This document shows, piece after piece, positions 8,958 to 42,388 of a DNA stretch of 64,000 bases. The translations under genes and the position numbers were made by a program. The stretch spans positions 24,895 through 88,894 of the forward strand of contig JBAZNA010000001.1 in assembly GCA_041649475.1 (NCBI GenBank). Direction: 5' to 3'. Position 1 is the first letter of the stretch. Every line of letters starts with the position of its first letter. This DNA is from Patescibacteria group bacterium (GTDB taxonomy: Bacteria; Patescibacteriota; Patescibacteriia; Magasanikbacterales; GWA2-37-8). The notes under the pieces are model-generated. The model saw only the letters and a list, made by a program, of their open reading frames with translations. It had not been told where the DNA came from and ran no database searches.

Positions 8958-9062
<105 letters not shown>

Positions 9063-9124
9063 AGACAATGGTCTTTTTTAAATTTTTAAAACATTGGCAT
9101 TGAACAGTCAACAATGGATATAAG

Positions 9125-12150
<3,026 letters not shown>

Positions 12151-25651: not shown

Positions 25652-27019
25652 TTACTTCACTTCCTGCCAACTAATCAAGTTATATTGCGAGCCGACCGGA
25701 AACCCGGGCGGCGGACCGTAAGTGAGATTGGCATCATAAGTGGAGTTTGTATTTCTGTATCCGGAAGTTATTGAGCCCCCGCCGGAAACCCAGCTCCAAG
25801 TCCAAATTTTCATGGATATAACCGAACCGTAAATCAGTAAATTTGTTTTCATGTCCCCCGGATAATAATAACGCTTGGCCGCGCCGTTTTGAGCCAAAAC
25901 AGCTGCGTCTATTTCCAAATCGTCCGGTGAATTGTGAGGGATTAAAATATTTTGATCGGCAATCAGACCCAAAACATCCGTACCGTCTTTGGCGGCATAA
26001 ATTATATCCCCATTTAAAATAATATTTTTACCGACCGAGGTGCCGACAACAACCCGGCCTTTTACAGCCCCGTCCACCCAAACATTATCATCAACAAAGA
26101 TATAACCATTGCTGGGCATATCATAAGTTGCGTATGACTCTTGAGTACTGATATCTATGCATGGCCAAAAATAATTATTGTCACCGACATCTTTGGCTTT
26201 ATAACAATCCGTTGTTAAGACCTTTGACACAATTACCTGTCCTTGGCTGGAAGAAGTGAATTGCAATCTCCAACCTTGCTGTCCGGAAGGGGTAAAGTTT
26301 AATCCGCCCAGATCCGGGTCTGAATTTGTTTCAATTTTGGCCAGATCGGCAGTGACCTCTGTAAAATCCTTGGCCGTAGCCGGAAAATCCCAATATGATT
26401 CGGGTCCGCCATCGCCCCAAATACCCGGTTTAACTTGACCTGCACCGCAACCATGATACTGCTTGCAGGTGTAAGTGGCCATGGCGCTGGTTATTGGAGC
26501 ATCACCGAGGCCGTCAAAACGGATTCCTCCATTGGCATGAAATTTTCCATGAGTCACTTCATCGTCTCCAATCCAAACATCAGTGCCGGTTAAAAAGGCG
26601 AAATCAGTCAGGGCCGGAAAACCAAGCTTCACTTTTATTTTTCTTTTTGTATTCGGCTGAATATCAAGCCAGCCGGTGGAAGTGACAGTGACGATGGTTG
26701 ATCCGGTTGGCGGCGGACCAATCTCCAAAGAAAAATGTCCGATTACATTTCCATCTTTGTCGGAATACGCGTGCACATACGGCCCGGGAGTACTTGTGCC
26801 GTTTCCGTCATAAAAATCTGTCTGACTATGAGCCAGGTGCCAGCGGTAATAATTAATGCCCGCGTCGGCAATTTGAAAAGCTACTTCCCGATTGTGTTTG
26901 CTTAGCGAAGCTCGGTTTTCAGAAATTGCATATCCGGCCAGACCAACCACAATGATTGAAAAAGCAATGGTGCCAAAGACCATGACAAAAAGTAAAATGT
27001 TTCCTTTTTTATTTAACAT
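25652..27019 (-). CDS. PilX-like type IV pilus-associated protein (N-terminal hydrophobic PilX_N-like segment)
   Basis: KKGNILLFVMVFGTIAFSIIVVGLAGYAI N-terminus. It is the last gene of a three-gene minor-pilin cluster. Confidence 0.45.
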   Translation of the reverse strand: MLNKKGNILLFVMVFGTIAFSIIVVGLAGYAISENRASLSKHNREVAFQIADAGINYYRWHLAHSQTDFYDGNGTSTPGPYVHAYSDKDGNVIGHFSLEIGPPPTGSTIVTVTSTGWLDIQPNTKRKIKVKLGFPALTDFAFLTGTDVWIGDDEVTHGKFHANGGIRFDGLGDAPITSAMATYTCKQYHGCGAGQVKPGIWGDGGPESYWDFPATAKDFTEVTADLAKIETNSDPDLGGLNFTPSGQQGWRLQFTSSSQGQVIVSKVLTTDCYKAKDVGDNNYFWPCIDISTQESYATYDMPSNGYIFVDDNVWVDGAVKGRVVVGTSVGKNIILNGDIIYAAKDGTDVLGLIADQNILIPHNSPDDLEIDAAVLAQNGAAKRYYYPGDMKTNLLIYGSVISMKIWTWSWVSGGGSITSGYRNTNSTYDANLTYGPPPGFPVGSQYNLISWQEVK

Positions 27020-27022
27020 ATT

Positions 27023-27640
27023 TTAATTATTTTTCAAATTCCTAAGCATCGCTTTTGATTCAATATAAAAAGGAGCCGGTGTTAAATTGGGATTCTGATC
27101 TAATTTTAAAATTATTCTGACAACTCTGATCTTAGTGACGTCAATTGGGCTGGCTAAGGGCGCTCCGGAGCCGTTATAATTACCGTCATAATAATAAAAA
27201 ACCGAAGTGGCATTGGCAAGTTCGTTGGCTACGTTGATTACGATTTCATTGACCGGATTATAAGTTAAGGGGTTGCCGGTTGGTTTGATGATACCCATCT
27301 TTAAGGTTGAAGTGACAGTAAAATAACGAAGACGTTCCACCAAACTATCGCTATCCGTATTTGAATAAAAAATAATTCCGGTGCTCGAAGCCGCCTGAAC
27401 CGGATAAGCGCCAATACTGGATTGCGAGGCGGTTCTGATTTGATTGACAAAATCCTGGGTGGCTTTCCGACCTTCATTTTGGGTAGAGAGCTGTTCCCAA
27501 ACAACGGAATTGTATCTGGAACCAGTCAGATATACGGCCACCACCGCGCCAACCAGTAGAACAAAAATACCCAAGGCCACAAGCACCTCAATCAACTGCA
27601 GGCCACGATTATCTGTTTGTATTTTTTTTAAAACAAACAT
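27023..27640 (-). CDS. Type IV minor pilin / pseudopilin (prepilin-type N-terminal methylation domain)
   Basis: NRGLQLIEVLVALGIFVLLV: G-x-x-L-I-E prepilin signal followed by a hydrophobic helix. Confidence 0.65.
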   Translation of the reverse strand: MFVLKKIQTDNRGLQLIEVLVALGIFVLLVGAVVAVYLTGSRYNSVVWEQLSTQNEGRKATQDFVNQIRTASQSSIGAYPVQAASSTGIIFYSNTDSDSLVERLRYFTVTSTLKMGIIKPTGNPLTYNPVNEIVINVANELANATSVFYYYDGNYNGSGAPLASPIDVTKIRVVRIILKLDQNPNLTPAPFYIESKAMLRNLKNN

Positions 27641-27642
27641 AT

Positions 27643-29439
27643 TTAAGAACTGGGTGACATATTAACCAAGGTTGATCCATTTCCGCTTATATCAATGGTG
27701 CCGTTATTGGTTGTGTAACCGCTCCGAGAAACATCCAAAGTATAGGTATCAACCGACAAACCGCTGAAAAAAACCTGACCGGGCGGTGTACAACTGGTGG
27801 AAAATGTAAAAGCTACTTCCGACAGGGTGGGTGTATAAGATGTGCTGGATGTATTTAAAAATACTTTATATCTAAAATAACGGTTATTATCGTTTCCGCT
27901 CCAAATCAAAGTATTAGTAGCTGTATAAAACGTACCGGCCGTGCCATCCGGCCCTTTATAACTCCAACTGCTGGGAGTACTGGTGTTGCTGGAAGCAAAC
28001 TGGAAAGTAACAGGATTGGCGCCGCACTGTGTCTGCGCAGAATACTTAAAAATTATATTATTAAAGTTTACTTGCGTGCCCAAATCAAAAGTAGAGGACT
28101 CCAGCCAGCCGTTATTGGCATAATAAAGTCCGGATTTCTTTAATTTTAAATCACCCGGATAAGAGCTGTAATTTACGGTTCCGCTGTCAGCAAAATATTT
28201 TTTTGGATTGGTAAAATTTATTTGCCCGCTGCCGCTTGACCAATCCGTTTGCCTGGTATAACCATAACCGGTTAAGACAGTGACATCATAACTAGTGCCC
28301 GTAAGTTCTACTGTCGCGTCTGACAAAGGCAACCCGGTGCCGGCATCAACCACATTGACCAAGAGAGAATTTGCAGTATGCGCCTGAAGAATAACTTTGG
28401 CATCCTGGGTCAGACCGGGATTAATAGCTAACGGCAACATCGGCATGGCTCCGGCTACATCATAACTGATTGTGCCGGTAGTGGATAGAAAATAAGTATC
28501 CCATTCAATGTTGGGAAAACTATAATTTCCGGAAGCGTCGGTTGTAAAATTTTTATTAAATTTATAAATATCCGGATCGATGGCAATTTTCTTGGCGCCT
28601 GACATGTTTAACCGAACACTGCCCAGAGCCGCGCAAGCCGTATTAATGGTATGCAGGGTTAAATTACTTAATCTGTCTATGGAAAAACTAATGTCGGTCA
28701 CGTCCTGACTGACCACATTGGCCGGCGGTTTTATGGGTGTGGGCGCGCTGGGGCCGGAGACCACTGTATAATCAGTTGAATAGCCCGGCTTACTGACATT
28801 TATATAATAACTTCGCGTACCGGTGGTTGTGTCTATGATGCGCAAATAGCCATCATTTCCGGTTGTATCATTTACTATAATCAAGGGTGTGCGCGCAGTA
28901 TTGGTCACAGACACATCCGCGCCCGCTACCGGCAAACCATCGGCATCAAAGACCTGGATAAAAAGCGCGCCGTTAACGCTGGCGCCTTCCAACTGTTTGG
29001 GGGCCACAATTGTACTTAAAATAACGGACGCTTGTTGTAAACAATTTTGACAAATAGCCGACATTTCCACCAACTTAAAATCCGCCGGAGACAAATCGTG
29101 GGGTGTGCCGCTCGCAGTGCCATCAAACGGATCATCTATGTTTCTGATGGTTGTAATCAGAGTAAATATCTCTCCATTGCGAACAGTGGTGGTGGTATGA
29201 GGCAAAACTCCGGCCGGCACGCCGCTTATAATACCGACGCTATCATAAGGAAGATTGCGCACGACTTCCAATTGCTCGGCCAAAATACCTGTTTCCAAAA
29301 TGCGCGTGCGCGATTGATACACGATTTTAAAAATCAAAGTGATGCCCCCATAGATGCCGACCGCGAATAATACAAAAATAGCCGTCGCCACGATGACTTC
29401 TATAAGCGTAAAACCTTTTCTGTTAAGAAGGATTTTCAT
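27643..29439 (-). CDS. Large (598 aa) type IV pilin-like protein with canonical prepilin signal (putative tip adhesin)
   Basis: N-terminal RKGFTLIEVIVATAIFVL is the textbook class III signal. A long S/T/N-rich ectodomain follows. Confidence 0.65.
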   Translation of the reverse strand: MKILLNRKGFTLIEVIVATAIFVLFAVGIYGGITLIFKIVYQSRTRILETGILAEQLEVVRNLPYDSVGIISGVPAGVLPHTTTTVRNGEIFTLITTIRNIDDPFDGTASGTPHDLSPADFKLVEMSAICQNCLQQASVILSTIVAPKQLEGASVNGALFIQVFDADGLPVAGADVSVTNTARTPLIIVNDTTGNDGYLRIIDTTTGTRSYYINVSKPGYSTDYTVVSGPSAPTPIKPPANVVSQDVTDISFSIDRLSNLTLHTINTACAALGSVRLNMSGAKKIAIDPDIYKFNKNFTTDASGNYSFPNIEWDTYFLSTTGTISYDVAGAMPMLPLAINPGLTQDAKVILQAHTANSLLVNVVDAGTGLPLSDATVELTGTSYDVTVLTGYGYTRQTDWSSGSGQINFTNPKKYFADSGTVNYSSYPGDLKLKKSGLYYANNGWLESSTFDLGTQVNFNNIIFKYSAQTQCGANPVTFQFASSNTSTPSSWSYKGPDGTAGTFYTATNTLIWSGNDNNRYFRYKVFLNTSSTSYTPTLSEVAFTFSTSCTPPGQVFFSGLSVDTYTLDVSRSGYTTNNGTIDISGNGSTLVNMSPSS

Positions 29440-30149: not shown

Positions 30150-33100
30150 CTATGAACACCCAGTGGTGCTTCCACAATTTAAACATTTATAACAACTCCC
30201 GCTTCTGATAGTTATATGCCCGCAAGTCGGGCAAGGCGGCGCATCGCCCATCATACCTGATAACTGTTGATTTACAGCATCAGCCGCTGCACCCGCAACC
30301 TCCTCAACCGGTTCAACTTTGGGAATGTTCGGAAGCGTGGCCTGTGTGCCGGAAGCATCATCTTCTTCGCGTATATCATCTGCCCCTAACTGCATAGTTT
30401 TTTGACCGCGCAATTCCGCTTCAATTTTTTCCATTTGCTCGGCCCGGTTCTTTTGAATGCCGGCCGGTTTCACCTGCACAAAATCCATTCTTCCCAGATA
30501 TTCCATCCCCAACACCCGGAAAATAAAATCTATAATTGAAGTGCAAAATTTAATATTAGGATGATCAGTGATACCGCTCGGATCAAATCTGGTAAAGGTA
30601 AACTTATCAACATATTCTTCCAGTGGCACGCCATACTGCAAACCGGTTGAAATGGACATAGCAAACAAATTGAGCAAGCTTCTAAATGCGGCTCCCTCCC
30701 TGTACATATCAATAAATATCTCCCCTAACTTTCCATCCGGATATTCACCGGTGCGCAGGAAAATCTTTTGCCCGGAGACCTTGGTTTTGATGGTTATCCC
30801 GCTGCGCTTATAAGGCAACCTTCTCTGCTCGCCATGAACATAAATCTTTGACCCCTGGTTGGTGCCATCATGCGCGTATTTAATCATGGCGTGCGTAGCC
30901 AGTACCGATACGGTTTCTTCTTTCTTTGCTTCTACTTTCTCTTCTTTTTTCTCCTCTTCTTTTTCTTTCTTATCACCCTTGCTTGATAGCGGTTGTGATA
31001 ATTTACTCCCATCCCTGTATAAGGCAATCGCTTTGAGTCCTAATTTCCAGGAAGCGATATAAGCGGTTTTGACATCGTCAATCGTGGCCTCATTGGGCAT
31101 ATTGATGGTCTTGGAAATTGCGCCGGACAAAAACGGCTGGACTGCGGCCATCATTCTAATATGCCCTAAATAATGAATATACCGCTGGCCCTTTTTGCCA
31201 TTTTTATTGGCCGTATCAAACACCGCGTAATGTTCTTTGCGCAGATGCGGCGCGCCTTCAATGGTCATAGCTCCGCAAACATATTCATTGGCCGCTAAAA
31301 TCTGTTCTTGAGTGAAACCCAAAGCGGAAAGCAAATTAAAATTCAGGTCATTATATTGTTCGCTGGTAAAACCAAGGCGAGTGAGACAATCTTCACCCAG
31401 CGTCCAGGCATTAAACGCAAATGGCAGTTCAAATACCATTGGCATTGATTTCTCCAATTTTACTATTTCTTCTTCAGTGAAACCCTTTTCTTTTAATGTC
31501 TCATGATTAATATGCGGCGCGCCTGAAAGAGTGCCCCGACCGCGCAAATAATTTATTATGTCAATCATTTGGCTCTCGGTATACCCAAGCACCTTTAAAG
31601 CCATAGGCACGGATTCATTTACAATTTTAAAATATCCGCCGCCGGCCAATTTTTTAAATTTCACCAGCGCAAAATCCGGCTCAACGCCGGTGGTGGCGCA
31701 GTCCATAAGCAAACCGATTGTGCCGGTGGGAGCAAGCAGGGTCACCTGCGAATTTCGGTAACCAAATTCCTGACCAAAAGCCAGGGCTTTGTCCCAACTC
31801 TCCTGCGCGGCAGAAAGTAAATATGACGGCACATACTGTGAATCTAAACCCATTGGCTTGACCGCCAAATTTTCATATTCATCTTCAGGGGCATTGTAGG
31901 CGGCACGCCGGTGATTTCTCATCACCCGCAACATATCTTCTTTATTAAGTTCATACTGCGCAAAAGGTCCGAGCAATTTGGCCATCTCCGCGGACGTGGC
32001 ATAGGACTCGGCAGTCATCAAAGCCGTAATGGCTCCGGCAATGCCCATGGCTTGCGGAGAATCATAAGGGATACCGGCGGTCATAAGCACACTGCCGACA
32101 TTGGCATAGCCCAGTCCCAAACTTCGAAATAGATAACTGTTCTTGGCGATTTCATAACTTGGAAATTGCGCCATTAAAATGCTTACTTCCAAAACAACCG
32201 TCCAAATTTTGGTGGTGTATCTAAAACCTTCAACATCAAAAGCCAAGGCCTCCGCGTCATAAAAATGGCCAAGGTTAATTGAGGCCAAATTACAGGCGGT
32301 GTCGTCTAAAAACATGTACTCACTGCAAGGATTTGAGGCCTTTATCCGGCCCGACTGCGGACAAGTGTGCCAATCATTTATATTGGTATCATATTGCAAT
32401 CCCGGATCAGCGCATGACCAGGCCGCGGTGGCAATTTTGTCCCATAAATTTTTAGCCGGCAAGGTCTTACAAACCTGACCGTTTATACGCCAAGTTAAAT
32501 TCCAGTCGCCGTTATTTTCAACCGCTTCCATAAAATCCTGGGTCACGCGGATGGAATTGTTTGAATTTTGTCCGGAAACAGTTTGATAGGCCTCGCCTTC
32601 ATAGGCAGAATCATAGCCGGATGAAATCAAAGCCGCCACTTTTTTTTCTTCATTCATTTTCCAATCAATAAACTTCTCAATATCCGGATGATCAATGTTT
32701 AAAATAACCATTTTGGCCGCCCGGCGGGTAGTGCCGCCGGATTTGATCGCGCCGGCCGCGCGATCGCCAATTTTTAGCCAGCTCATCAATCCGGAAGATT
32801 CGCCGCCACCGGATAATTTTTCTCCGGAGCCGCGCAAATTGGAAAAATTTGTCCCAGTGCCGCTGCCGTATTTGAATAACCTTGCTTCCCTGACCCACAA
32901 GTCCATAATTCCACCCGGATTTACCAGATCGTCTTTGATTGATTGAATGAAACAAGCATGCGGTTGATTGCGGGAGTAGGCGTCAGGCGACGGCATCACT
33001 TCTCCGGTGGCATCCTCAACATAGTAATGACCCTGCGCCGGACCATTTATGCCATAGGCCCAAAAAAGACCGGTGGTAAACCATTGCGGCGAATTTGGCG

Positions 33101-33569
33101 CCACCATTTGGGCGATGAGCATGTAAACTAATTCATCATAAAAAATTTGGGCATCTTGAGGGCTGGCAAAATAACCGTACTTTTCTCCCCAATATCGCCA
33201 GGTGCCGGCCAATCTATGGGCAACTTGCTTAATACTTTTTTCACTGCCCAAAACCGGCGAACCGCTTTCGTTTAATGTTGGCGTACCATCCGAATTATAT
33301 TGCGGTACTCCGGCTTTTCTAAAATATTTCTGGGCCAAAATATCCGTCGCCACCTGCGACCAGGTGCTGGGCACCTCAACGCTGGTCATTTCAAAAACAA
33401 TTTGCCCGCTCGGCTCTCTGATAACCGATGACCGAAGCTCATAGGTGAACATATCAAACGGACTGATATCGTCCCGGGTGTAATGCCTGGCAAATCGCAA
33501 ACCGTTCTCTACGTTATATTTAAAATCGCTGTCGGTTATATAGGTTTTGGTGGCCACGGCATTTTGCAT
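30150..33569 (-). CDS. nrdJ: Adenosylcobalamin-dependent (class II) ribonucleotide reductase
   Basis: RHYTRDDISPFDMFTYELRSSVIREPSGQIVFEMTSVEVPSTWSQVATDILAQKYFRKAGVP N-terminal signature. C-terminal Zn-ribbon CPTCGH...CYKCLNCG. The start was trimmed to MQNAVATK; the ORF is open to 33668. Confidence 0.85.
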   Translation of the reverse strand: MQNAVATKTYITDSDFKYNVENGLRFARHYTRDDISPFDMFTYELRSSVIREPSGQIVFEMTSVEVPSTWSQVATDILAQKYFRKAGVPQYNSDGTPTLNESGSPVLGSEKSIKQVAHRLAGTWRYWGEKYGYFASPQDAQIFYDELVYMLIAQMVAPNSPQWFTTGLFWAYGINGPAQGHYYVEDATGEVMPSPDAYSRNQPHACFIQSIKDDLVNPGGIMDLWVREARLFKYGSGTGTNFSNLRGSGEKLSGGGESSGLMSWLKIGDRAAGAIKSGGTTRRAAKMVILNIDHPDIEKFIDWKMNEEKKVAALISSGYDSAYEGEAYQTVSGQNSNNSIRVTQDFMEAVENNGDWNLTWRINGQVCKTLPAKNLWDKIATAAWSCADPGLQYDTNINDWHTCPQSGRIKASNPCSEYMFLDDTACNLASINLGHFYDAEALAFDVEGFRYTTKIWTVVLEVSILMAQFPSYEIAKNSYLFRSLGLGYANVGSVLMTAGIPYDSPQAMGIAGAITALMTAESYATSAEMAKLLGPFAQYELNKEDMLRVMRNHRRAAYNAPEDEYENLAVKPMGLDSQYVPSYLLSAAQESWDKALAFGQEFGYRNSQVTLLAPTGTIGLLMDCATTGVEPDFALVKFKKLAGGGYFKIVNESVPMALKVLGYTESQMIDIINYLRGRGTLSGAPHINHETLKEKGFTEEEIVKLEKSMPMVFELPFAFNAWTLGEDCLTRLGFTSEQYNDLNFNLLSALGFTQEQILAANEYVCGAMTIEGAPHLRKEHYAVFDTANKNGKKGQRYIHYLGHIRMMAAVQPFLSGAISKTINMPNEATIDDVKTAYIASWKLGLKAIALYRDGSKLSQPLSSKGDKKEKEEEKKEEKVEAKKEETVSVLATHAMIKYAHDGTNQGSKIYVHGEQRRLPYKRSGITIKTKVSGQKIFLRTGEYPDGKLGEIFIDMYREGAAFRSLLNLFAMSISTGLQYGVPLEEYVDKFTFTRFDPSGITDHPNIKFCTSIIDFIFRVLGMEYLGRMDFVQVKPAGIQKNRAEQMEKIEAELRGQKTMQLGADDIREEDDASGTQATLPNIPKVEPVEEVAGAAADAVNQQLSGMMGDAPPCPTCGHITIRSGSCYKCLNCGSTTGCS

Positions 33570-33760
33570 ATATTCCTGCTTATAGTATTTAAAATTAATT
33601 TTTACCACAATATGTAGTAAAAGGACATTGACAAAATACATTATATCATTTTTACAAGCCGGGCACAAAGATAATAAATTTTAGCTAAAATTGGCCTAAA
33701 ATCTAAATAAAAAAACTCATACTAGATGAGTTATCCACCGCCAAAAAATTGGCCTCAACT

Positions 33761-36700
33761 TTATACCGAGACCGGGATGACTTCAAAAGGCGGAGCAGGA
33801 GGAGCTTCGGGAGGTGTTTCTGGAGTTGGAGGAACTTCAGGAGCAGGTGGGGCTTCCGGGGCAGGCGGAACTTCGGGGACAGTTGGAGCCGGGGCGCTTT
33901 CAACAACCGGAGGTGGGCTGGGTGGTGTCTCCGTTACAGTTTCCGGAGTTGGGGTCGGAGTGGTTGGTGTTGGTGTTGGTGTTGGGGCTGGGGTTGGTGT
34001 TTCAACCGGTGTTTCAGTCGGAGTAGGAATGGGAGGAAGTGTTGGGGTTACAGGCGCATTGCTCCTCTTAGCTACGACTATCCAATCAAAGGTTGCGTTG
34101 CTATTTCCATTGTTTAATTCTTTCACCACAAAACCATTAGCACTCTTAGAAGCCACATACACTCCATTTCCTTCACCGGATGTCAAAGTCACGCTGATTT
34201 TAATGGGCTGATTCGGATCAATCACATCCTTAATTGCAGCATCAAAATCAATTTGTACGGTTCCGGACATAAGCTGAGACGAACTGGAAAATACTAATTC
34301 GGAATTGGTGGATTGCATGGCATACAAATCCTGCGAACCATTGGCTGTTTGTACTTTGGCAATTAAATTGCCGTCAGCGTCAATTCTCCACTTCCCGCCT
34401 GCGCCGGTGATTGAAGCCACATTAATAATTGTATTGTTCTGAAGATCAAGGTTGCCGCCGGTATAACTTAATTGCCCGCCGGTTTGTGACACGCCCAAAT
34501 TTTCCGGAGAACTGCTGGGTGATAAATTTATTCCTTGGAGAGAAGCGATCTGGTTTATGCTATTTTGAATTTCAGCAATAGTGTTATCGCGATTATACAT
34601 CCACCCGGTTCTAATTAATGTCATAATTTTTCCGGTGGGTTGATCCATTGGCTCAAGAGCCACACCAATTATACCGACCATCTTATTATTGTTATCTTTT
34701 GTCGGATCATACTTCATGGCGTATCCGGGCATAGAGGCGGAAATTAACAAATCACCGCGTTGTATTGGCCCGTTTTCATTGGAAACTTTGACCGGCACAC
34801 GGCCAACCATGGCCATGACAGCCATATAATCAGTTTTACCGTTGCCTACTATAATAGTCGGGTTGGTAGAAACCACGCCGGCCACAGATTGCTCATATGC
34901 TCCGTTGCTTCTTCGGTATGTATCCGGCGCACTTGGGTCTACCATCAAAACATCCCCCGGTTCAACATTATCATCCACGGCAATATCCACCTTCTCTGCC
35001 AAATCGCCGGGGTTTGTGGATGTTCCTAAAGTGATTGATGGAGCGTAAATATTTCCTTTGGTATTAACATCGCCGTTGGCTGATACAGAAAACACCGGAT
35101 CATTGTTTGAGCGCAGTGAAACAATATAATTATCCGCAGTGGAAGTATTGAAATTGATTGCGTTAAAAGTGAAGGCCTTAGCCGAAGGGGATGAAACTGC
35201 CGCTGATTGAAAAGTGATCTCTTGGGTTGTACTACTTAAGATAAGGGTTGAATTTAACTTCTTTAGGTCTCTATACATTGTCTGCTGGTTGGTGAGCAAG
35301 AATTGAATAGCTGACCCGGCGGCTATACTATTCTGGTCGTGGCCGGTTAAAAGATCCGGAGATTCATCGGCAATAATGCCATATTGCCAGATGGCTTGAT
35401 CGCCATAAGCGCTTACATCATTAATAAAACGATATTGATTAATATTTAAACTGTCCAACATGGATAACAGGTTGCTTCTTTGTGTTTCTGTAATCGGAAC
35501 AATATCCTGCTTAATGGAACGGGAGGACCCATTATGCCATTGGCCGTCAACTGCACTATAGTAACCGCCGCCGTCCATGTTTAAAAGATAACTAAAAGAA
35601 GAGGTGCCGATGCCGACATTGCCGCCCATGATGGCCATTACGTTAATGGCAGACACAGTATAATGGGTTTCGGTATTTCCAATGCCGATACCGATTGAAC
35701 CAGTTCCTGAAACTTCTATATAGTTGCCTAAAGCCATGGCTTTTTCCGCAGACGAGGTCACATGGCTGCCAAAGGCAAAAGAAGTACCGGCTGAAGCAAC
35801 CACAGTATCACCAATAGCTACCGATACATTCCCTGTTGCCGTAAGATGTTTTCCCATTGCTATAGAACTATCACCCGAAGAGACCCCGTCTCCCATGATA
35901 AAGGAAGAGAGACCGCCCGCCACTCCGCCCAACCCAAGAGCAACGGAAGCAGTGCCACTGGCTGTGTTGCCTCCTCCGGCGGCGAACGAGTATAATCCGC
36001 TGGCTTTGGTGCCGGCGCCAAAAGCAGCTGACGAGGTGCCAATATTGGCTTCATCCCAACCAGTGCCATCGCCAAGCGGCAACACTCCCAAAAACATATC
36101 TGCGGTCTTTCCAGCTCTAAACGCCGCTTTGGATGGAATCCACATCATACGAGTACCGGTGCCGGAAACAGGAGTGGCTCCGACTGTGCCAGCGGCTAAA
36201 ATAGCACCGTCTTGAAGAGTAAAAAGTGCTTGAGGAGTTGTTGTTCCGATTCCCACATTCCCACCCATAATAGCCATGACATTGCTTTGATTTAATTCAT
36301 AACGTGGCCATATATTATTCAAACTAATACCAAAAGATCTGTCACCGGTTACATTAATACGAGTTCCCATGGCAGTTGAATACGCGCCACTGGCAACAAC
36401 ATCATCACCAATGGCAATGGCTTGCGTACCACTGGCATATGATTGATAACCGACCGCAAAAGAATTCCCTCCGGTAGCTCTGGATGCAAAACCCAAAGCC
36501 ATAGAGCCATCCCCAGAGGCAATTACACTATCTCCTAACGCAACAGATCGTGCGCCAGAGGCCTTAGCAAAAGATCCCAAAGCGATAGCCGTCGTATTGC
36601 TAGCAATGACATTCCAACCCATAGCCACAGAAGAAGATCCTATCTTTGCATCATCCCAATAAATAGATTCTTCCCCACCCTGATCTTCAAGCTTGCCGGC

Positions 36701-39700
36701 TCTAAATGCCGCTTTGGACGGAACCCACATCATACGGGTACCGAGGCCGGAAGCGGGGGTGTTGCCAATGGTGCCGGAAGCGATGACGGCGCCATTGATA
36801 ATACCAAAAGTATTTGCGTTAGATAAGGTGCCATTATCTGAATTGCCTAAACCGATACCGAAGGAATTTGCACCGGAAACTGTCATATACCTGCCCATAG
36901 CAATAGAATACTGGGCAGTAGATGTTACTGAAGTTCCAATAGCCACAGCAAACGACGTCAGTGCCCTGGCGTCACCACCGATAGCTACCGAAGCGGTACC
37001 ACTTGCTGTGGCAGCACCAAAAGCTGAAGATCCGTCTCCTGTGGCGCTGGAGCCGCCCAAAGCTGTAGCACTGGTGCCGCTGGCATAAGAACCAAAACCC
37101 ATCGCAACAGATAAAGGCCCCCCAGAAAAATTATTCATACCTATTGCAACAGAACCAAGGGCGGTGGCTTTATTATTAACCCCCAAAGCCATGGAGTATT
37201 CACCAATATTTGCATCATCCCATTCTGTTCCACCATATGGGTCGGCTCCATAGGTATCAACACCTACCGCGCCAGCTCTAAACGCCGCTTTACTTGGTAT
37301 CCACATCATACGAGTGCCGGGACCGGAACCGGGAGTGTTGCCGGTGGTGCCGGAGGCGATCATGGCACCATTGATTATTCCAAAAGTATTTGCAGTAGAT
37401 AAAACACCATTGTCAGATGACCCCAAACCGATACCGAAGGAATTTGCACCAGAAACTGTCAAATATTTGCCCATTACAAAAGAATTTCCGCCCGAACTTG
37501 TTACAAACTCACCAATAGCAACAGACCTGCTTCCCAAAGCTCTTACTGTTTCACCCATAGCAATGGCTTTAGCCGCACTGGCAAATGCATTATTACCAAG
37601 AGCGATAGCTCCGTCGCCTTGAGCTTTATTGCCTGATCCCATAGCCACTGACGCGGTGCCGGTGGATATATTGCTGGCGCCCATGGCAATGGAGAATATA
37701 CCAGCTGAAATATTTTCAACACCTGAAGCGAATGTATATGGACCGCTGGCTTCAACATTATACCCCAAAGCCATAGAATAAGAACCGATACTTGCCTCAT
37801 CCCATTCTGTTGAAGAAGCATACCCGGCTCTAAAAGCCGCCTTGCTCGGTATCCACATCAGACGAGTGCCGGCGCCGGAAATCGGAGTCCCTTGGGCACC
37901 TGTGCCACTGGTTGAACTGACAGCCAGAATAGCGCCATCTAAAATTGTTAACGCCGCTTGAGGTGTGGTGGTGCCAATACCAACATTCCCACCCATGATG
38001 GCCATGACATTGCTGGCTGAAATAATTCTATCTGTTGTATCCAAGCCAATACCAAACGACTGACTTCCTGTAACATTTATATGTGATCCCAACGCGATTG
38101 CGCCTGAAGCAGTACTTGTAATATGCCCACCCATGGCGATTCCACCAGAAGCAAAGGCATGTGCGTTTTCACCCATCGCAAAGGAATTAGTACCCAATGC
38201 TGTTGACCAATTTCCTAAAGCAACAGCACCGTTTCCTGCTGCCCAACTGCCAACACCGGCGGCAAAGGCAGCAGTGCCACTAGCGATGGTATCTATACCA
38301 AAAGCAACTGAACCTAAACCAATTTTTGCATCATCCCAAGCATCCACACCGGCATATAGACCCTGGATTGATCCGGCTCTAAAAGCCGCCTTGCTCGGTA
38401 TCCACATCATGCGAGTGCCGGCGCCGGAAATCGGAGTCCCTTGGGCACCTGTGCCACTGGTTGAACTGACAGCCAGAATAGCGCCGTCAACTATTGTTAA
38501 TCCCGCCAAAGGCGAACTGGTATTTATTCCTACATTTCCATTTGCCAAAACGCGCAGCATGCTGGAGCCGGAGGAGGAGGCGATGTCAAAAAATGGACTG
38601 CTGGTAACCGAACCGGATATTGAGAATAGAGCTGTTGGAGTAGTTGTGCCAACTCCCACTCTGCCGGTTGTTCCTTCACCGGCCGATGGGCCTACAAATA
38701 ATGTGGGAACTGTAGAATAAAAGCCCACAACCAAAGACCTGTCAGTGGAGTTGACAAGTAAACCACTACCTAGACCCAGGCCGTTACCAATAATAATGGA
38801 ACTAAAGGCACTTGAAGAAACATACTGACCAAGGGCAAAGGAATTATCACCGCTGGCAGTGGAGTATTGCCCCAACGCGGTTGAATAGTTACCACTGGCA
38901 ACAGATCGAGAACCCATCGCGGTTGAAGTATAGCCGCTCGCAACGGTATTACCACCCATCGCGACTGACCGGTCCCCGATTAACGCATCATCCCATTGTG
39001 TCCCATCTACAATACCCGCCCTAAACGCCGCTTTACTTGGTATCCACATCATACGGGTGCCGCCGCCGGAAATTGGAGTGTCACCGACTGAACCTGTGGC
39101 CAGGATGGCACCATCAACTATTGTAAACTTTGCCAAAGGCGAAATTGTGTTTACGCCTAAAGCCCCCAAAGTGCCTGTTGATGAAATTCTAAAATTGGCC
39201 ACTTGATCCGCGGATGATTGATTTTGTATATAACTGTCTGAACCGGATGAAGATGCGAATCCTAAACTGCTTGTATTCACCCATTGCCCGCGGCCGCTGC
39301 CGTTAGACATATAAATATTGCCGCTATATCCGGAAGTGGCTATAAAATACTGTCCGTAATCAATATTATTTATTCTGTAAGTCCCGGTGGTATTAATATC
39401 ACCGGCTACTGATAATTTCCAGGCAGGAGAGGTGGTGCCTATTCCAACCGAACCGCCAAAGTACGACGGCGTGTTTGTTGCCGAAATTGACAAAGCCCCT
39501 TGTGACAAAATACCACCATAACCAACCGTCAAAGATGTCCCTATATCAACTATTCCTTTGGTGATTATTTCGTTTTGCACTGCAAGTTTTCCAACTTCGG
39601 CCGAGTGAGCAAATAATGAACCGACTTCCGTTCCATAAAGATCGGTGATAAAAAATAAACCAGAACTATCATTGACAGAAAATACGTAATTCCCAACCAC

Positions 39701-41272
39701 CTTGACCCCATAATCTCCCGCATACACATTACCAACCTCACTCATTACTCCCGGATTTGAAATATCAATTATATCTATAATTCCCAAATAAGTTGATACA
39801 AACGCATAATTTCCGGAAATGTCTAAGTCAAACGGAGCATTGACCAGGGCAACCGTGGATGATACCACCGGTGTAATTGGATTGTGTATATCCACAGATA
39901 TTAAGGTATTATTCCATGTACCCCCTAAATATGCATACCCTCCGGAAACATAAATAGGATAGGCCCCTGAACCTGCCGGCAGGTCTGTAGTGCTTTTCTG
40001 TACTGGTAAATTTGGATTAGAAATATCTACTACCATCAAATGACTAGTATGTGTCAAATAAGCGTACTTACCGGAAACAAATATTTCCCCGGGGCCATAG
40101 TCCAATGTTACTGAACTTACTACTACCGGGTTATATGGATTGGAGATATCAATTACATACATTTTTGTATCATCTGTATCAGCGACGTATAAATATTTAC
40201 CCGACACAAAAATTGAGTCCGCAGAACTGCTTGATCCTAATGATGTTGTGCTAATCTGAACCGGAGATGCTGGTTTGGTTACATCAACAACAACTAATTT
40301 ATTTGTCATACCAGCGCCCAAATAAGCATAATTACCGGCAACAAATATTGAACTAACACGCCCTATGCTTAACAGTAATGTGGCAACCTTGATTGGAGCG
40401 CTTGGTCTATTTATGTCTATTACAGACAAGTATGATGGATCGCCTCTATCCGAAACATAGGCATATCGGCCAGACACATATAATTCAGAGGCCTGGGATT
40501 GTGCGAAGACAAACCCTACGGTGTTTATACCCGAATCGGGATGTATGGGATTATAAATTTTACCCAATACGGTCAGTTTTCTACTTGTCGCTGTTGTGCC
40601 AATTCCCACCTGTCCTCCGGCTGTCGCAAAAGTCGCCCCATAATTAAAAGTGGAAGTATTGTTTGAGATTACAGTCAGTTTGTTTGTGACGGTAGTTGTT
40701 GAAATCGTCGTACTGTTAAAATTAAAATTTCCGTTGACATCCGACACTGGAATGTAAGTTGACGAAGAAACAGTGGCCGAAGCAACTCCGTCCAAATACA
40801 TTGAATTAAAAGAATATGGTGAGGCCGTGATTTGTTTTCTGGGGGTTAGGGTTTGGGCGCCGATTCTTACTTCCAAAAATACTGACGCATTATTTTTAAA
40901 AATATTTGGATCAAGGGTATTGGTACCAGTGTCGCCGAGATTGATTGAGAACAAACCTGAAGTTGGTGTAACAGCGATTGAGGTGGGTGTACCAACCGTG
41001 CCTCCGGCTGTATAGAGTGCCGTACCTCCGGACGCGGAATCATACAAAATAAAATACATGTCCTGACTGGTTGTTGCCGCTAACCCGTTCACCAATAATT
41101 TTCCTTGATAAGTAATTATGCTGGGTGGGGTGGCAGACCGCGCATTTAAACCATAGGCAATGAAAAACAAAATACACCCAAATATCAAAAAAATGGGAAG
41201 AATTCTTTTGCAGTTCTGCCACTTCCTCTTTAACTCCTGCATATCTTCTTTGTTACTTCTATAGTATAGCAC
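33761..41272 (-). CDS. Giant (2503 aa) secreted/cell-surface fibre protein with LVIVD-like beta-propeller repeats, Hep_Hag/YadA-head-like repeats, an internal S74-type intramolecular-chaperone-like domain and a Pro/Thr-rich C-terminus
   Basis: Single uninterrupted ORF. N-terminal TM/signal [19 protein letters not shown]. Six recurrences of [16 protein letters not shown] about 190 aa apart. [10 protein letters not shown]...[13 protein letters not shown] block. TPTPTPTPT...PPAPE tail. Confidence 0.8.
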
Positions 41273-41359
41273 CTTTTAACGACTATTTATACGTTTTTTA
41301 AGCAAAAAACTGTGGATAAATGGACTTCGTATCTTTTTTGCTATATAATTAAAATCACT

Positions 41360-42388
41360 ATGAACCAAAGCGAAGATACAGAACGAGTTGTTCAGCCCGA
41401 AGTTGAAAACGAAGAGGCAATCTTAGATATTTCTTTGCGTCCGCAAAAACTGGCTGATTTTATCGGACAAAACCAACTAAAACAAAACCTGCATATATCA
41501 ATGCAGGCGACAAAAAAACGCTCGGAACCGTTGGAACATATTCTCCTTTATGGAAATCCGGGTTTGGGGAAGACAACTTTGGCTCACATCATCGCCAAAG
41601 AAATGAACAGCAATATTCGGGTAACATCAGGCCCGGCCTTGGAAAAAGTTGGCGATCTGGCCGCCATTTTATCAAATCTGCAGGACGGCGAAATTTTATT
41701 CATAGATGAAATTCACCGACTGAATAAAACCATAGAAGAAGTGCTCTACCCCGCTTTAGAAGATTACGCCTTGGATATTATCATCGGCAAAGGCCCGGCC
41801 GCCCGGACAATACGCATGCCACTCTCCCGATTTACTTTAATCGGCGCGACCACAAAAATCGGACTTATATCAGCGCCTCTGCGCGACCGCTTCGGCCATA
41901 CTTTTCATCTTGATTTTTATGAAGAAGATGATATAAAAACAATCCTTTTGCGTAACGCAAAAATTCTGGATGTGGAAATTAACTCGGATGCGGCCGATCT
42001 CATTTCGCAACGCGCCCGCCGGACACCGCGAATTGCCAACCGCCTGCTTAAACGCGTACGCGATTTTGCCCAGGTAAAATTCAACGGGAAAATAGATAAA
42101 AAAGTTGCCTCCGAAGGACTTAATATGCTGGCTATTGATCATTACGGCTTGGACGAAATAGACCGCAGATTGTTAAATACCCTGATTCAAAAATTCAATG
42201 GCGGGCCGGCCGGTCTAAACACGCTTTCCGCGGCCATTAGCGAAGAAATGGACACAATTGAGACAATCTACGAACCATTCCTTTTGCAAATTGGATTCCT
42301 TGAACGAACGCCCCGAGGCCGGCGAGCCACTCCGGCCGCCTACACGCATCTTGGCTACGGCGCCCCTAAATCTCAAACTCTTTTTTAA
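41360..42388 (+). CDS. ruvB: Holliday junction branch-migration helicase RuvB
   Basis: Walker [12 protein letters not shown], Walker [11 protein letters not shown], arginine finger region. Alternative upstream ATG at 41312. Confidence 0.9.

Follow-up and report, generated by a model that had tools for sequence, protein, structure and literature searches.

Architecture of the giant fibre gene

Attachment to other cells is the presumed way of life of Patescibacteria, and how their surface structures are built is largely obscure. The window analysed here is a 64,000-nt stretch of DNA from a Patescibacteria group bacterium (Magasanikbacterales; GWA2-37-8; assembly GCA_041649475.1, contig JBAZNA010000001.1). 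It carries a giant gene whose predicted product is a surface fibre thousands of residues long, made out of phage-fibre modules, as is a whole family of proteins in this lineage. As read from the sequence, the new element is that two different self-cleaving-type chaperone domains, one of the Peptidase_S74 type and one resembling the autocleavage domain of phage phi29 gp12, stand in tandem and within the chain of a giant Patescibacteria fibre, not at its end. The parts are known, namely the chaperones of phage fibres, internal processing as in MyRF and heads like those of YadA, and the protein does not form a new category.

An initial annotation of this DNA had described an uninterrupted 7.5-kb open reading frame (ORF). 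The ORF was indeed unbroken (33761..41272, 2503 aa if read from GTG), and its strand was corrected to minus. The ATG at 41242, which has a TATACT-like box and AAGAAG upstream, is the likelier start of the gene and would give a protein of 2493 aa. A 2493-aa entry of the protein library (P0234) is identical to the ORF read from this ATG. Amino-acid numbering counts from GTG 41272. The gene and its features are as follows.

33761..41242, minus strand: giant fibre gene, from the ATG start at 41242 (the mechanical ORF reaches GTG 41272)
41132..41242, minus strand: predicted Sec-type signal peptide, aa 11-47, from the aligned N-termini of about 60 relatives
40760..41131, minus strand: N-terminal 'YQG' domain, family-defining, Ig-like beta-sandwich, aa 48-171
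39563..40489, minus strand: LVIVD beta-propeller of about 7 blades, aa 262-570 (Pfam PF08309)
35579..39193, minus strand: six units of the YadA-head kind (left-handed beta-roll), each 183-214 aa long, aa 694-1898
35237..35527, minus strand: Peptidase_S74 intramolecular chaperone/autocleavage domain, aa 1916-2012 (Pfam and family profile)
35006..35236, minus strand: short beta-strand stalk between both chaperone domains, aa 2013-2089
34607..35005, minus strand: phi29-gp12-type (Peptidase_G2-like) autochaperone domain, aa 2090-2222, starting with D2090-L-A-E2093
34067..34606, minus strand: conserved C-module, a helix and then a beta-sandwich, aa 2223-2402
33764..34066, minus strand: Pro/Thr/Glu-rich low-complexity tail, aa 2403-2503, with 39% Pro over the last 101 aa
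33751..33773, minus strand: terminator-like hairpin and T-run overlapping the stop codon of the giant gene (consensus scan only)

The Peptidase_S74 domain

An S74-like block had been proposed at nt 35321-35530, and Pfam confirmed both the call and its place: PF13884 scored 27.2 bits against a cut-off of 22 over aa 1916-1972 (nt 35357-35527), covering profile positions 1-50 of 58. The domain carries a putative nucleophile, Ser1916, a putative base, Lys1921 (SSRSIK), and a G-x-I-A-x-E motif. An alignment and profile (A3) were made from 14 S74 segments of the window and its relatives, which are 13-59% identical to the segment of the window. Only Ser1916, Lys1921 and Gly1965 were invariant across them, and the Ser-Lys dyad, whose conservation had been named as a check, was thus found in 14 of 14 segments. 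The two residues correspond to S911/K916 of endoNF and S587/K592 of MyRF, where Ser and the Lys five positions on form the catalytic dyad (PMC8326128).

When the 14-sequence profile was compared with the PDB, matches were obtained to a tail fibre (8jov, E 5.7e-11), phage S16 gp37 (6f45, E 6.7e-11), MyRF (7dc3, E 5e-9), GA-1 (3gud, E 2e-8), T5 (8hqz, E 1.9e-4) and endoNF (3gw6, E 8e-3). The profile was needed for this, since a PDB search with the single sequence of the S74 region gave noise-level matches only (3gud, E 1.9). A homologue search with the last YadA-like unit plus the S74 domain returned only four proteins and missed relatives that were already known.

The S74 domain ends at aa 2012 with 491 residues downstream, so that it is internal and not at the extreme C-terminus. 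It is internal because a further fibre segment with a chaperone of a different type, and then the C-module, come after it. The initial annotation had called such a position unusual. This holds relative to phages but not within the protein family, where an internal S74 domain recurs (L029, L030, L043, L055, L063, P0011, P0016, P0028, P0031, P0171 and P0266), and MyRF is a precedent: its S74-type domain lies within a longer protein, and cleavage parts the N-terminal trimer from the C-terminal portion (PMC8326128). The giant protein resembles MyRF in the internal position and in the profile match to 7dc3. The two differ downstream, where MyRF has a membrane anchor; the giant protein lacks a transmembrane segment there and has a second chaperone, the C-module and a Pro-rich tail. 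With the S74 domains of phages (K1F endosialidase, T5 pb1, GA-1 gp12 and S16 gp37) it shares Pfam-level membership, the Ser(+5)Lys pair, the G-x-I-A-x-E motif and a place directly after a beta-structured, predictedly trimeric array. It differs from them in being internal, in belonging to a protein that is cellular and apparently secreted, and in having Ser for Asp after the nucleophile.

The gp12-like domain

The initial annotation had left the region after S74 as a further 500 aa with a proline-rich end. The proline-rich end was found, but the rest is not featureless and holds the gp12-type domain and the C-module. The former came to light when homologues were sought with the last 520 aa of the protein as query, and through local BLAST. 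The stretch at aa ~2060-2220 is a domain that lies about 3 residues or fewer from the C-terminus in more than 80 proteins of many phyla, two of which gave sub-threshold Pfam matches to Peptidase_G2, the autocleavage domain of phi29 gp12. In a 32-sequence alignment of the domain (A1), D-x-A-E stands at the domain start, with Asp and Ala invariant and Glu near-invariant. The sole PDB match of the A1 profile was phi29 gp12 (6qz9, E 0.0097). D2090 and E2093 fall on the D-F-A-E with which 3gqh, the C-terminal fragment set free from gp12, begins; in 3suc, the 'pre-mature' gp12, the motif is D-F-A-Q, with Q at the Glu position. In gp12 the residues with catalytic roles in cleavage are presumably Asp692 and Glu695. 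An AlphaFold2 model of aa 2060-2402 had pLDDT values of 84-94 across the gp12-like domain, and a Foldseek search with the model also returned 3suc; the modelled domain shows the fold of the released gp12 fragment. The short stalk ahead of it is kept in relatives upstream of every gp12-like domain, and the profile alignment sets it against the final rungs of gp12, ahead of the gp12 cleavage site.

Like phi29 gp12, the domain has an Asp at the position of the (here predicted) cut and a Glu three positions further on. It differs in that it stays below the cut-off of PF11962, that only ~110 of the 163 residues of gp12 align, that it is internal, and that its setting is extracellular, whereas the cut gp12 domain is reported to need ATP for its release (work of Xiang et al., 2009). 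With PF11962 (gathering score 25 bits), 10 of the 32 A1 members gave sub-threshold matches, the best at E 2.9e-5, and the domain goes unannotated by the current Pfam and NCBIfam models. At E<=0.001 the A1 profile picked out 32,132 representative proteins from a library of 1.84 billion; with the threshold at E<=1e-30 the number was 8,339.

The gp12-like domain is internal in the window protein and in its Magasanikbacteria relatives, and terminal in relatives from other phyla. It is also encoded by at least 574 stretches of viral contigs, 80 loci of which were kept for counts of position and motif. The domain ended 15 residues or fewer from the C-terminus in 113 of 113 viral ORFs (median 3), which is the position of a removable autochaperone. 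D-x-A-E was kept in all 113 viral copies, in 116 of ~123 C-terminal cellular copies and in 367 of ~392 internal copies. Among isolated phages, direct BLAST (tblastn) found the domain only in the Pseudomonas PA5oct group, in a virion structural protein. In these jumbo phages (H1-H11) the stretch is 35.6% identical to the gp12-like domain, and the records of the protein that contains it call it hypothetical, a 'virion structural protein' or a 'baseplate wedge subunit and tail pin'.

The N-terminal part, the repeated units and the C-terminus

The N-termini of about 60 relatives show an n-region, an h-region and an AxA site 3-6 aa ahead of YQG. In the window protein the predicted cut lies near NARSA|TPPS, immediately ahead of the conserved PPxIIxYQG. 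The segment had been annotated as a transmembrane or signal segment; the signal part of this agrees with the Sec-type AxA site, but the anchor reading does not, since the hydrophobic segment looks like a cleaved signal peptide. The LVIVD-like propeller that had been noted was recovered by Pfam at 122.1 bits against a cut-off of 20.2. Pfam called 6 stretches, and 7 blades with a period of 43-45 aa were recognised by eye (starts at aa 268, 313, 358, 401, 444, 487 and 527).

The six units of about 190 aa reported earlier are present. Each contains a GTR[ML]MW[IV]PSKAAFRAG block (at aa 738, 952, 1135, 1319, 1511 and 1706, spaced by 214, 183, 184, 192 and 195 aa), then WD(D/E)A.IG and AxGxxSxAxG repeats. 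The block had been called invariant, but it is near-invariant, with one M>L and one I>V change. A significant Hep_Hag/YadA-head match, which had been named as a check, was obtained: YadA_head (PF05658) scored 149.4 bits over 13 stretches, above the Pfam cut-off. The giant protein thus resembles trimeric autotransporter adhesins (TAAs; YadA, Ata, EmaA) in using YadA_head beta-roll repeats as repeated head units. In contrast to them, it would trimerise through phage-type chaperones, and its host lineage is not known to possess an outer membrane. NCBIfam models of TAAs matched the repeats only and far under their cut-offs (YadA 89.5 of 750, Ata 61 of 2500, EmaA 48 of 3000), and the Pfam scan of the giant protein found no YadA_anchor beta-barrel. 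For these two reasons the candidate of a trimeric autotransporter (type Vc) was rejected.

The C-module consists of a helix (TGW.YN...), then ...LNV.SI.G...W.ID..G.L..., and a beta-sandwich ending in FDWIVVAKR. It is 45-69% identical across species, and its profile found no relatives in the PDB or Pfam. As the second domain of the AlphaFold2 model it weakly matches AP22, HPA and discoidin structures, the same set that the lectin-like foot of the pyocin fibre matches (PMC6116203). Its own fold is weakly lectin-like. With the distal end of R-type pyocin or P2-like fibres the giant protein would also share the order of tandem trimeric knobs followed by a terminal beta-sandwich. No sorting motif was found in the tail (aa 2403-2503), and the tails of relatives are similar in composition and unrelated in sequence. 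In domain and profile scans the C-terminal end showed neither a transmembrane segment nor a sortase motif, and none of the known wall-binding domains.

The family of giant fibre proteins

A scan of one genome per species gave 438 related loci, most of them titled Candidatus Magasanikbacteria, the best (L001) being 69% identical. Homologues derive from Patescibacteria metagenome bins. Dozens of the species-genome records (L002, L004-L007 and many more), with Magasanikbacteria-type giants 55-65% identical to that of the window, are titled 'TPA_asm: uncultured Gammaproteobacteria'; these titles look like placeholder taxonomy.

The Magasanikbacteria-type giants are 1100-3756 aa long, and their gp12-like domain (G2L) is internal and often in tandem. 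The commonest architecture is N-domain ... G2L-G2L-C-module, and N-domain ... G2L-C-module also occurs. The architecture of the window protein, N-domain ... YadA-like units ... S74-G2L-C-module, is found in L029, L030, L043, L055 and L063 as well. The S74 domain directly follows the YadA-like array in the window, L029, L030 and L055, and after a gap of ~125 aa in L043, and gp12-like domains come after other stalks. Across the family both ends are constant and the middle is swapped or shuffled. In relatives from outside Patescibacteria, the chain ends with the gp12-like domain and the N-domain is the sole other constant part, which favours the N-domain as the attachment end. In the literature searched, S74 or Peptidase_G2 domains were not described from proteins of Patescibacteria or the candidate phyla radiation (CPR), nor was S74 together with YadA or LVIVD. 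As far as these searches show, this large family is undescribed.

Both chaperone types are interleaved in P0171 (G2L, G2L, S74, G2L) and in P0266 (S74, S74, G2L, G2L). On each of two contigs, a pair of paralogous giants lies ~14 kb apart. On CAWJAS010000001.1 (L041/L043), the C-module is preceded by G2L-G2L in one paralogue and by S74-G2L in the other; on CAWDHY010000002.1 (L030/L055), both have S74-G2L.

Proposed assembly and processing

The giant protein is very probably a trimeric secreted fibre assembled by these domains. A homotrimer is strongly expected because the YadA head, the S74 domain and the gp12-like domain are all obligate trimers in known homologues. The fuller reading, a Sec-secreted homotrimeric surface fibre in which each segment is folded by its own chaperone domain, is also probable, with somewhat less confidence. 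The chain would leave the cell unfolded via Sec, N-terminus first, so that the C-terminal trimerising domains would emerge last and fix the register of the three chains. In phage fibres the chaperone domain sets the register of the segment just upstream (PMC4690869). By the same logic, the S74 domain would nucleate the YadA-like array immediately upstream of it, and the gp12-like domain would nucleate the short stalk.

By analogy with the phage and MyRF homologues, the assembled trimer may then cut itself at Ser1916, through the Ser-Lys dyad, and before Asp2090, through the Asp/Glu pair, giving predicted pieces of ~1868, 174 and 414 aa. The argument that the cuts happen is that exactly the catalytic residues are conserved in the internal copies. 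On this ground we lean towards self-cleavage at Ser1916, and consider the odds for self-cleavage at Asp2090 to be about even.

Several observations weigh against this picture. If both cuts occurred and the pieces separated, the conserved C-module would be stripped from the fibre, which is hard to square with its conservation. The residue after Ser1916 is Ser, where the usual consensus is Asp. PF11962 gave no match to the window protein at E<=1, and its relatives reach sub-threshold scores only. A recognisable anchor was found at neither end of the giant protein, and uncut C-terminal autochaperones are known in the P22 tailspike and in TAAs (PMC3357383). Three ways out may be considered for the C-module. 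The cut pieces may stay bound, as the release of gp12 reportedly depends on ATP, which is lacking outside the cell. The C-piece may also be a product by itself. The domains may also be retained uncut, as in the P22 tailspike (PMC3357383).

A further reading, which we put forward tentatively and consider less likely than not, is a self-processing 'polyfibre'. Here the Ser-Lys type S74 domain and the Asp/Glu type gp12-like domain would cut the exported trimer into three pieces. These would either stay joined non-covalently, so that an attachment fibre would contain a break point sensitive to force, or part from each other, leaving a long fibre and a separate particle of the weakly lectin-like C-module.

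A first alternative, which we regard as similarly uncertain and, taken by itself, rather doubtful, is that of retained nodes. The S74 and gp12-like domains would be permanent knobs for trimerisation and registration that are never cut, and the mature subunit would be one chain of ~2450 aa that carries the C-module at one of its ends. The Magasanikbacteria giants as a rule have internal and tandem copies, and the conserved C-module downstream argues for an undivided chain; type II intramolecular chaperones that stay uncut also exist, as in the P22 tailspike and TAAs (PMC3357383). However, the catalytic Ser and Lys are the sole invariant residues of the S74 domain besides one Gly, and D-x-A-E is kept equally in internal, terminal and viral copies, whereas structural roles rarely fix exactly the catalytic residues.

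A second alternative, closest to the idea of the initial annotation, is a release switch like that of MyRF, and we consider it unlikely. The C-module and the Pro-rich tail would hold the trimer in the envelope, and the S74 cut would shed a fibre of ~1868 aa or leave a non-covalent mechanical fuse. An internal S74 domain followed by an anchoring part is the layout of MyRF (PMC8326128). The signal peptide is probably removed, which would leave no N-terminal membrane anchor, and conservation is seen at both ends of the protein, with a swapped middle between them. A Pro-rich tail at the C-terminus is of a kind suited to spanning a cell wall. Against this, the C-terminus has none of the anchoring elements that were scanned for, and the N-domain and the terminal gp12-like domain are the sole constants outside Patescibacteria, which points to the N-domain as the attachment end. 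The release or re-anchoring of a large ectodomain via S74, which the initial annotation had suggested, is a possible outcome.

An adhesin for an epibiotic lifestyle, also proposed there, is plausible in a Patescibacteria genome, and we give a role in attachment to another cell or surface an even chance. If the internal domains do cut, the giant protein would be a bacterial counterpart of MyRF-type processing and would offer a route to modular, self-assembling trimeric fibres. If the polyfibre proposal is right, chained internal self-cleaving nodes would be a general principle by which Magasanikbacteria and Patescibacteria related to them build giant surface proteins, and one taken over from phage fibres, in which these domains occur strictly at the end. 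A proper family model of the gp12-like domain (~32,000 clusters) would annotate many 'hypothetical' fibre proteins, both viral and bacterial.

Genomic setting

The ten genes flanking the giant gene are housekeeping or pilin-like, and no phage structural or integration genes were found among them. Genes near the giant gene encode a class II ribonucleotide reductase (RNR), a cobalamin adenosyltransferase, RuvB, a bPH protein, SpoIID, a membrane protein of the Polysacc_synt (polysaccharide-synthesis) family and an AI-2E transporter. The window also encodes 23S and 5S rRNA and ten tRNA genes. Among the related loci, L001 alone shares the gene neighbourhood; since the neighbouring genes are common to L001 only, there is no conserved operon to rely on.

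That the giant gene is a tail-fibre gene of a phage or prophage and not a cellular surface protein is very improbable. The S74, gp12-like and lectin-like tip domains are components of phage fibres, and two PHROG families were matched, phrog_17524 (tail protein, E 3e-5) and phrog_1775 (minor head protein, E 0.0019). Nevertheless, the flanks hold housekeeping genes in place of phage genes, the surrounding gene order is kept in one relative, the giant protein carries a Sec signal peptide, and the family occupies many chromosomal sites in Magasanikbacteria; in addition, viral copies of the gp12-like domain have no C-module and are always terminal. The prophage tail-fibre candidate was rejected on the absence of phage genes at the locus, the signal peptide and the chromosomal family.

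An artefact of collapsed or chimeric repeats, which the initial annotation had raised as a check, is still less probable: many database relatives do stop at contig ends, so that such genes must be hard to assemble, but the repeats and units inside the gene are merely 60-87% identical in DNA, for which reason collapse is not an issue, the identical 2493-aa protein was recorded independently, and complete relatives of 2542-3318 aa in other genomes keep the domain order.

The giant gene and ruvB are separated by a short divergent promoter region (41243-41361) with a TGGACT-17-TATAAT match at 41321-41349 on the plus strand, and for RuvB an ATG near 41359 is a likelier start than GTG 41312, the one listed. 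The cobalamin adenosyltransferase gene is two genes downstream of the giant gene. A 797-aa library protein with a gp12-like domain (P0018) has a precomputed Cob_adeno_trans Pfam match, which may reflect a fusion or a gene-calling artefact. The class II RNR (30150-33668, minus strand) is unusually long at 1172 aa; its barrel domain was matched in two stretches and a TSCPD domain is present. The L001 homologue spans just 80% of it, so an insertion or an intein is possible.

A few kb from the giant gene lies a type IV pilin-like run (25652-29439, minus strand). Its products are proteins of 598 aa (N_methyl and CarboxypepD_reg domains), 455 aa (PilX_N) and 205 aa (a weak, sub-threshold N_methyl match, E 0.0074). 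The gene for the 598-aa protein holds the same position relative to the giant gene in L001. The 23S and 5S rRNA genes lie at 8958-12125 on the minus strand with no 16S gene within the 64 kb, which indicates that the rRNA genes are unlinked.

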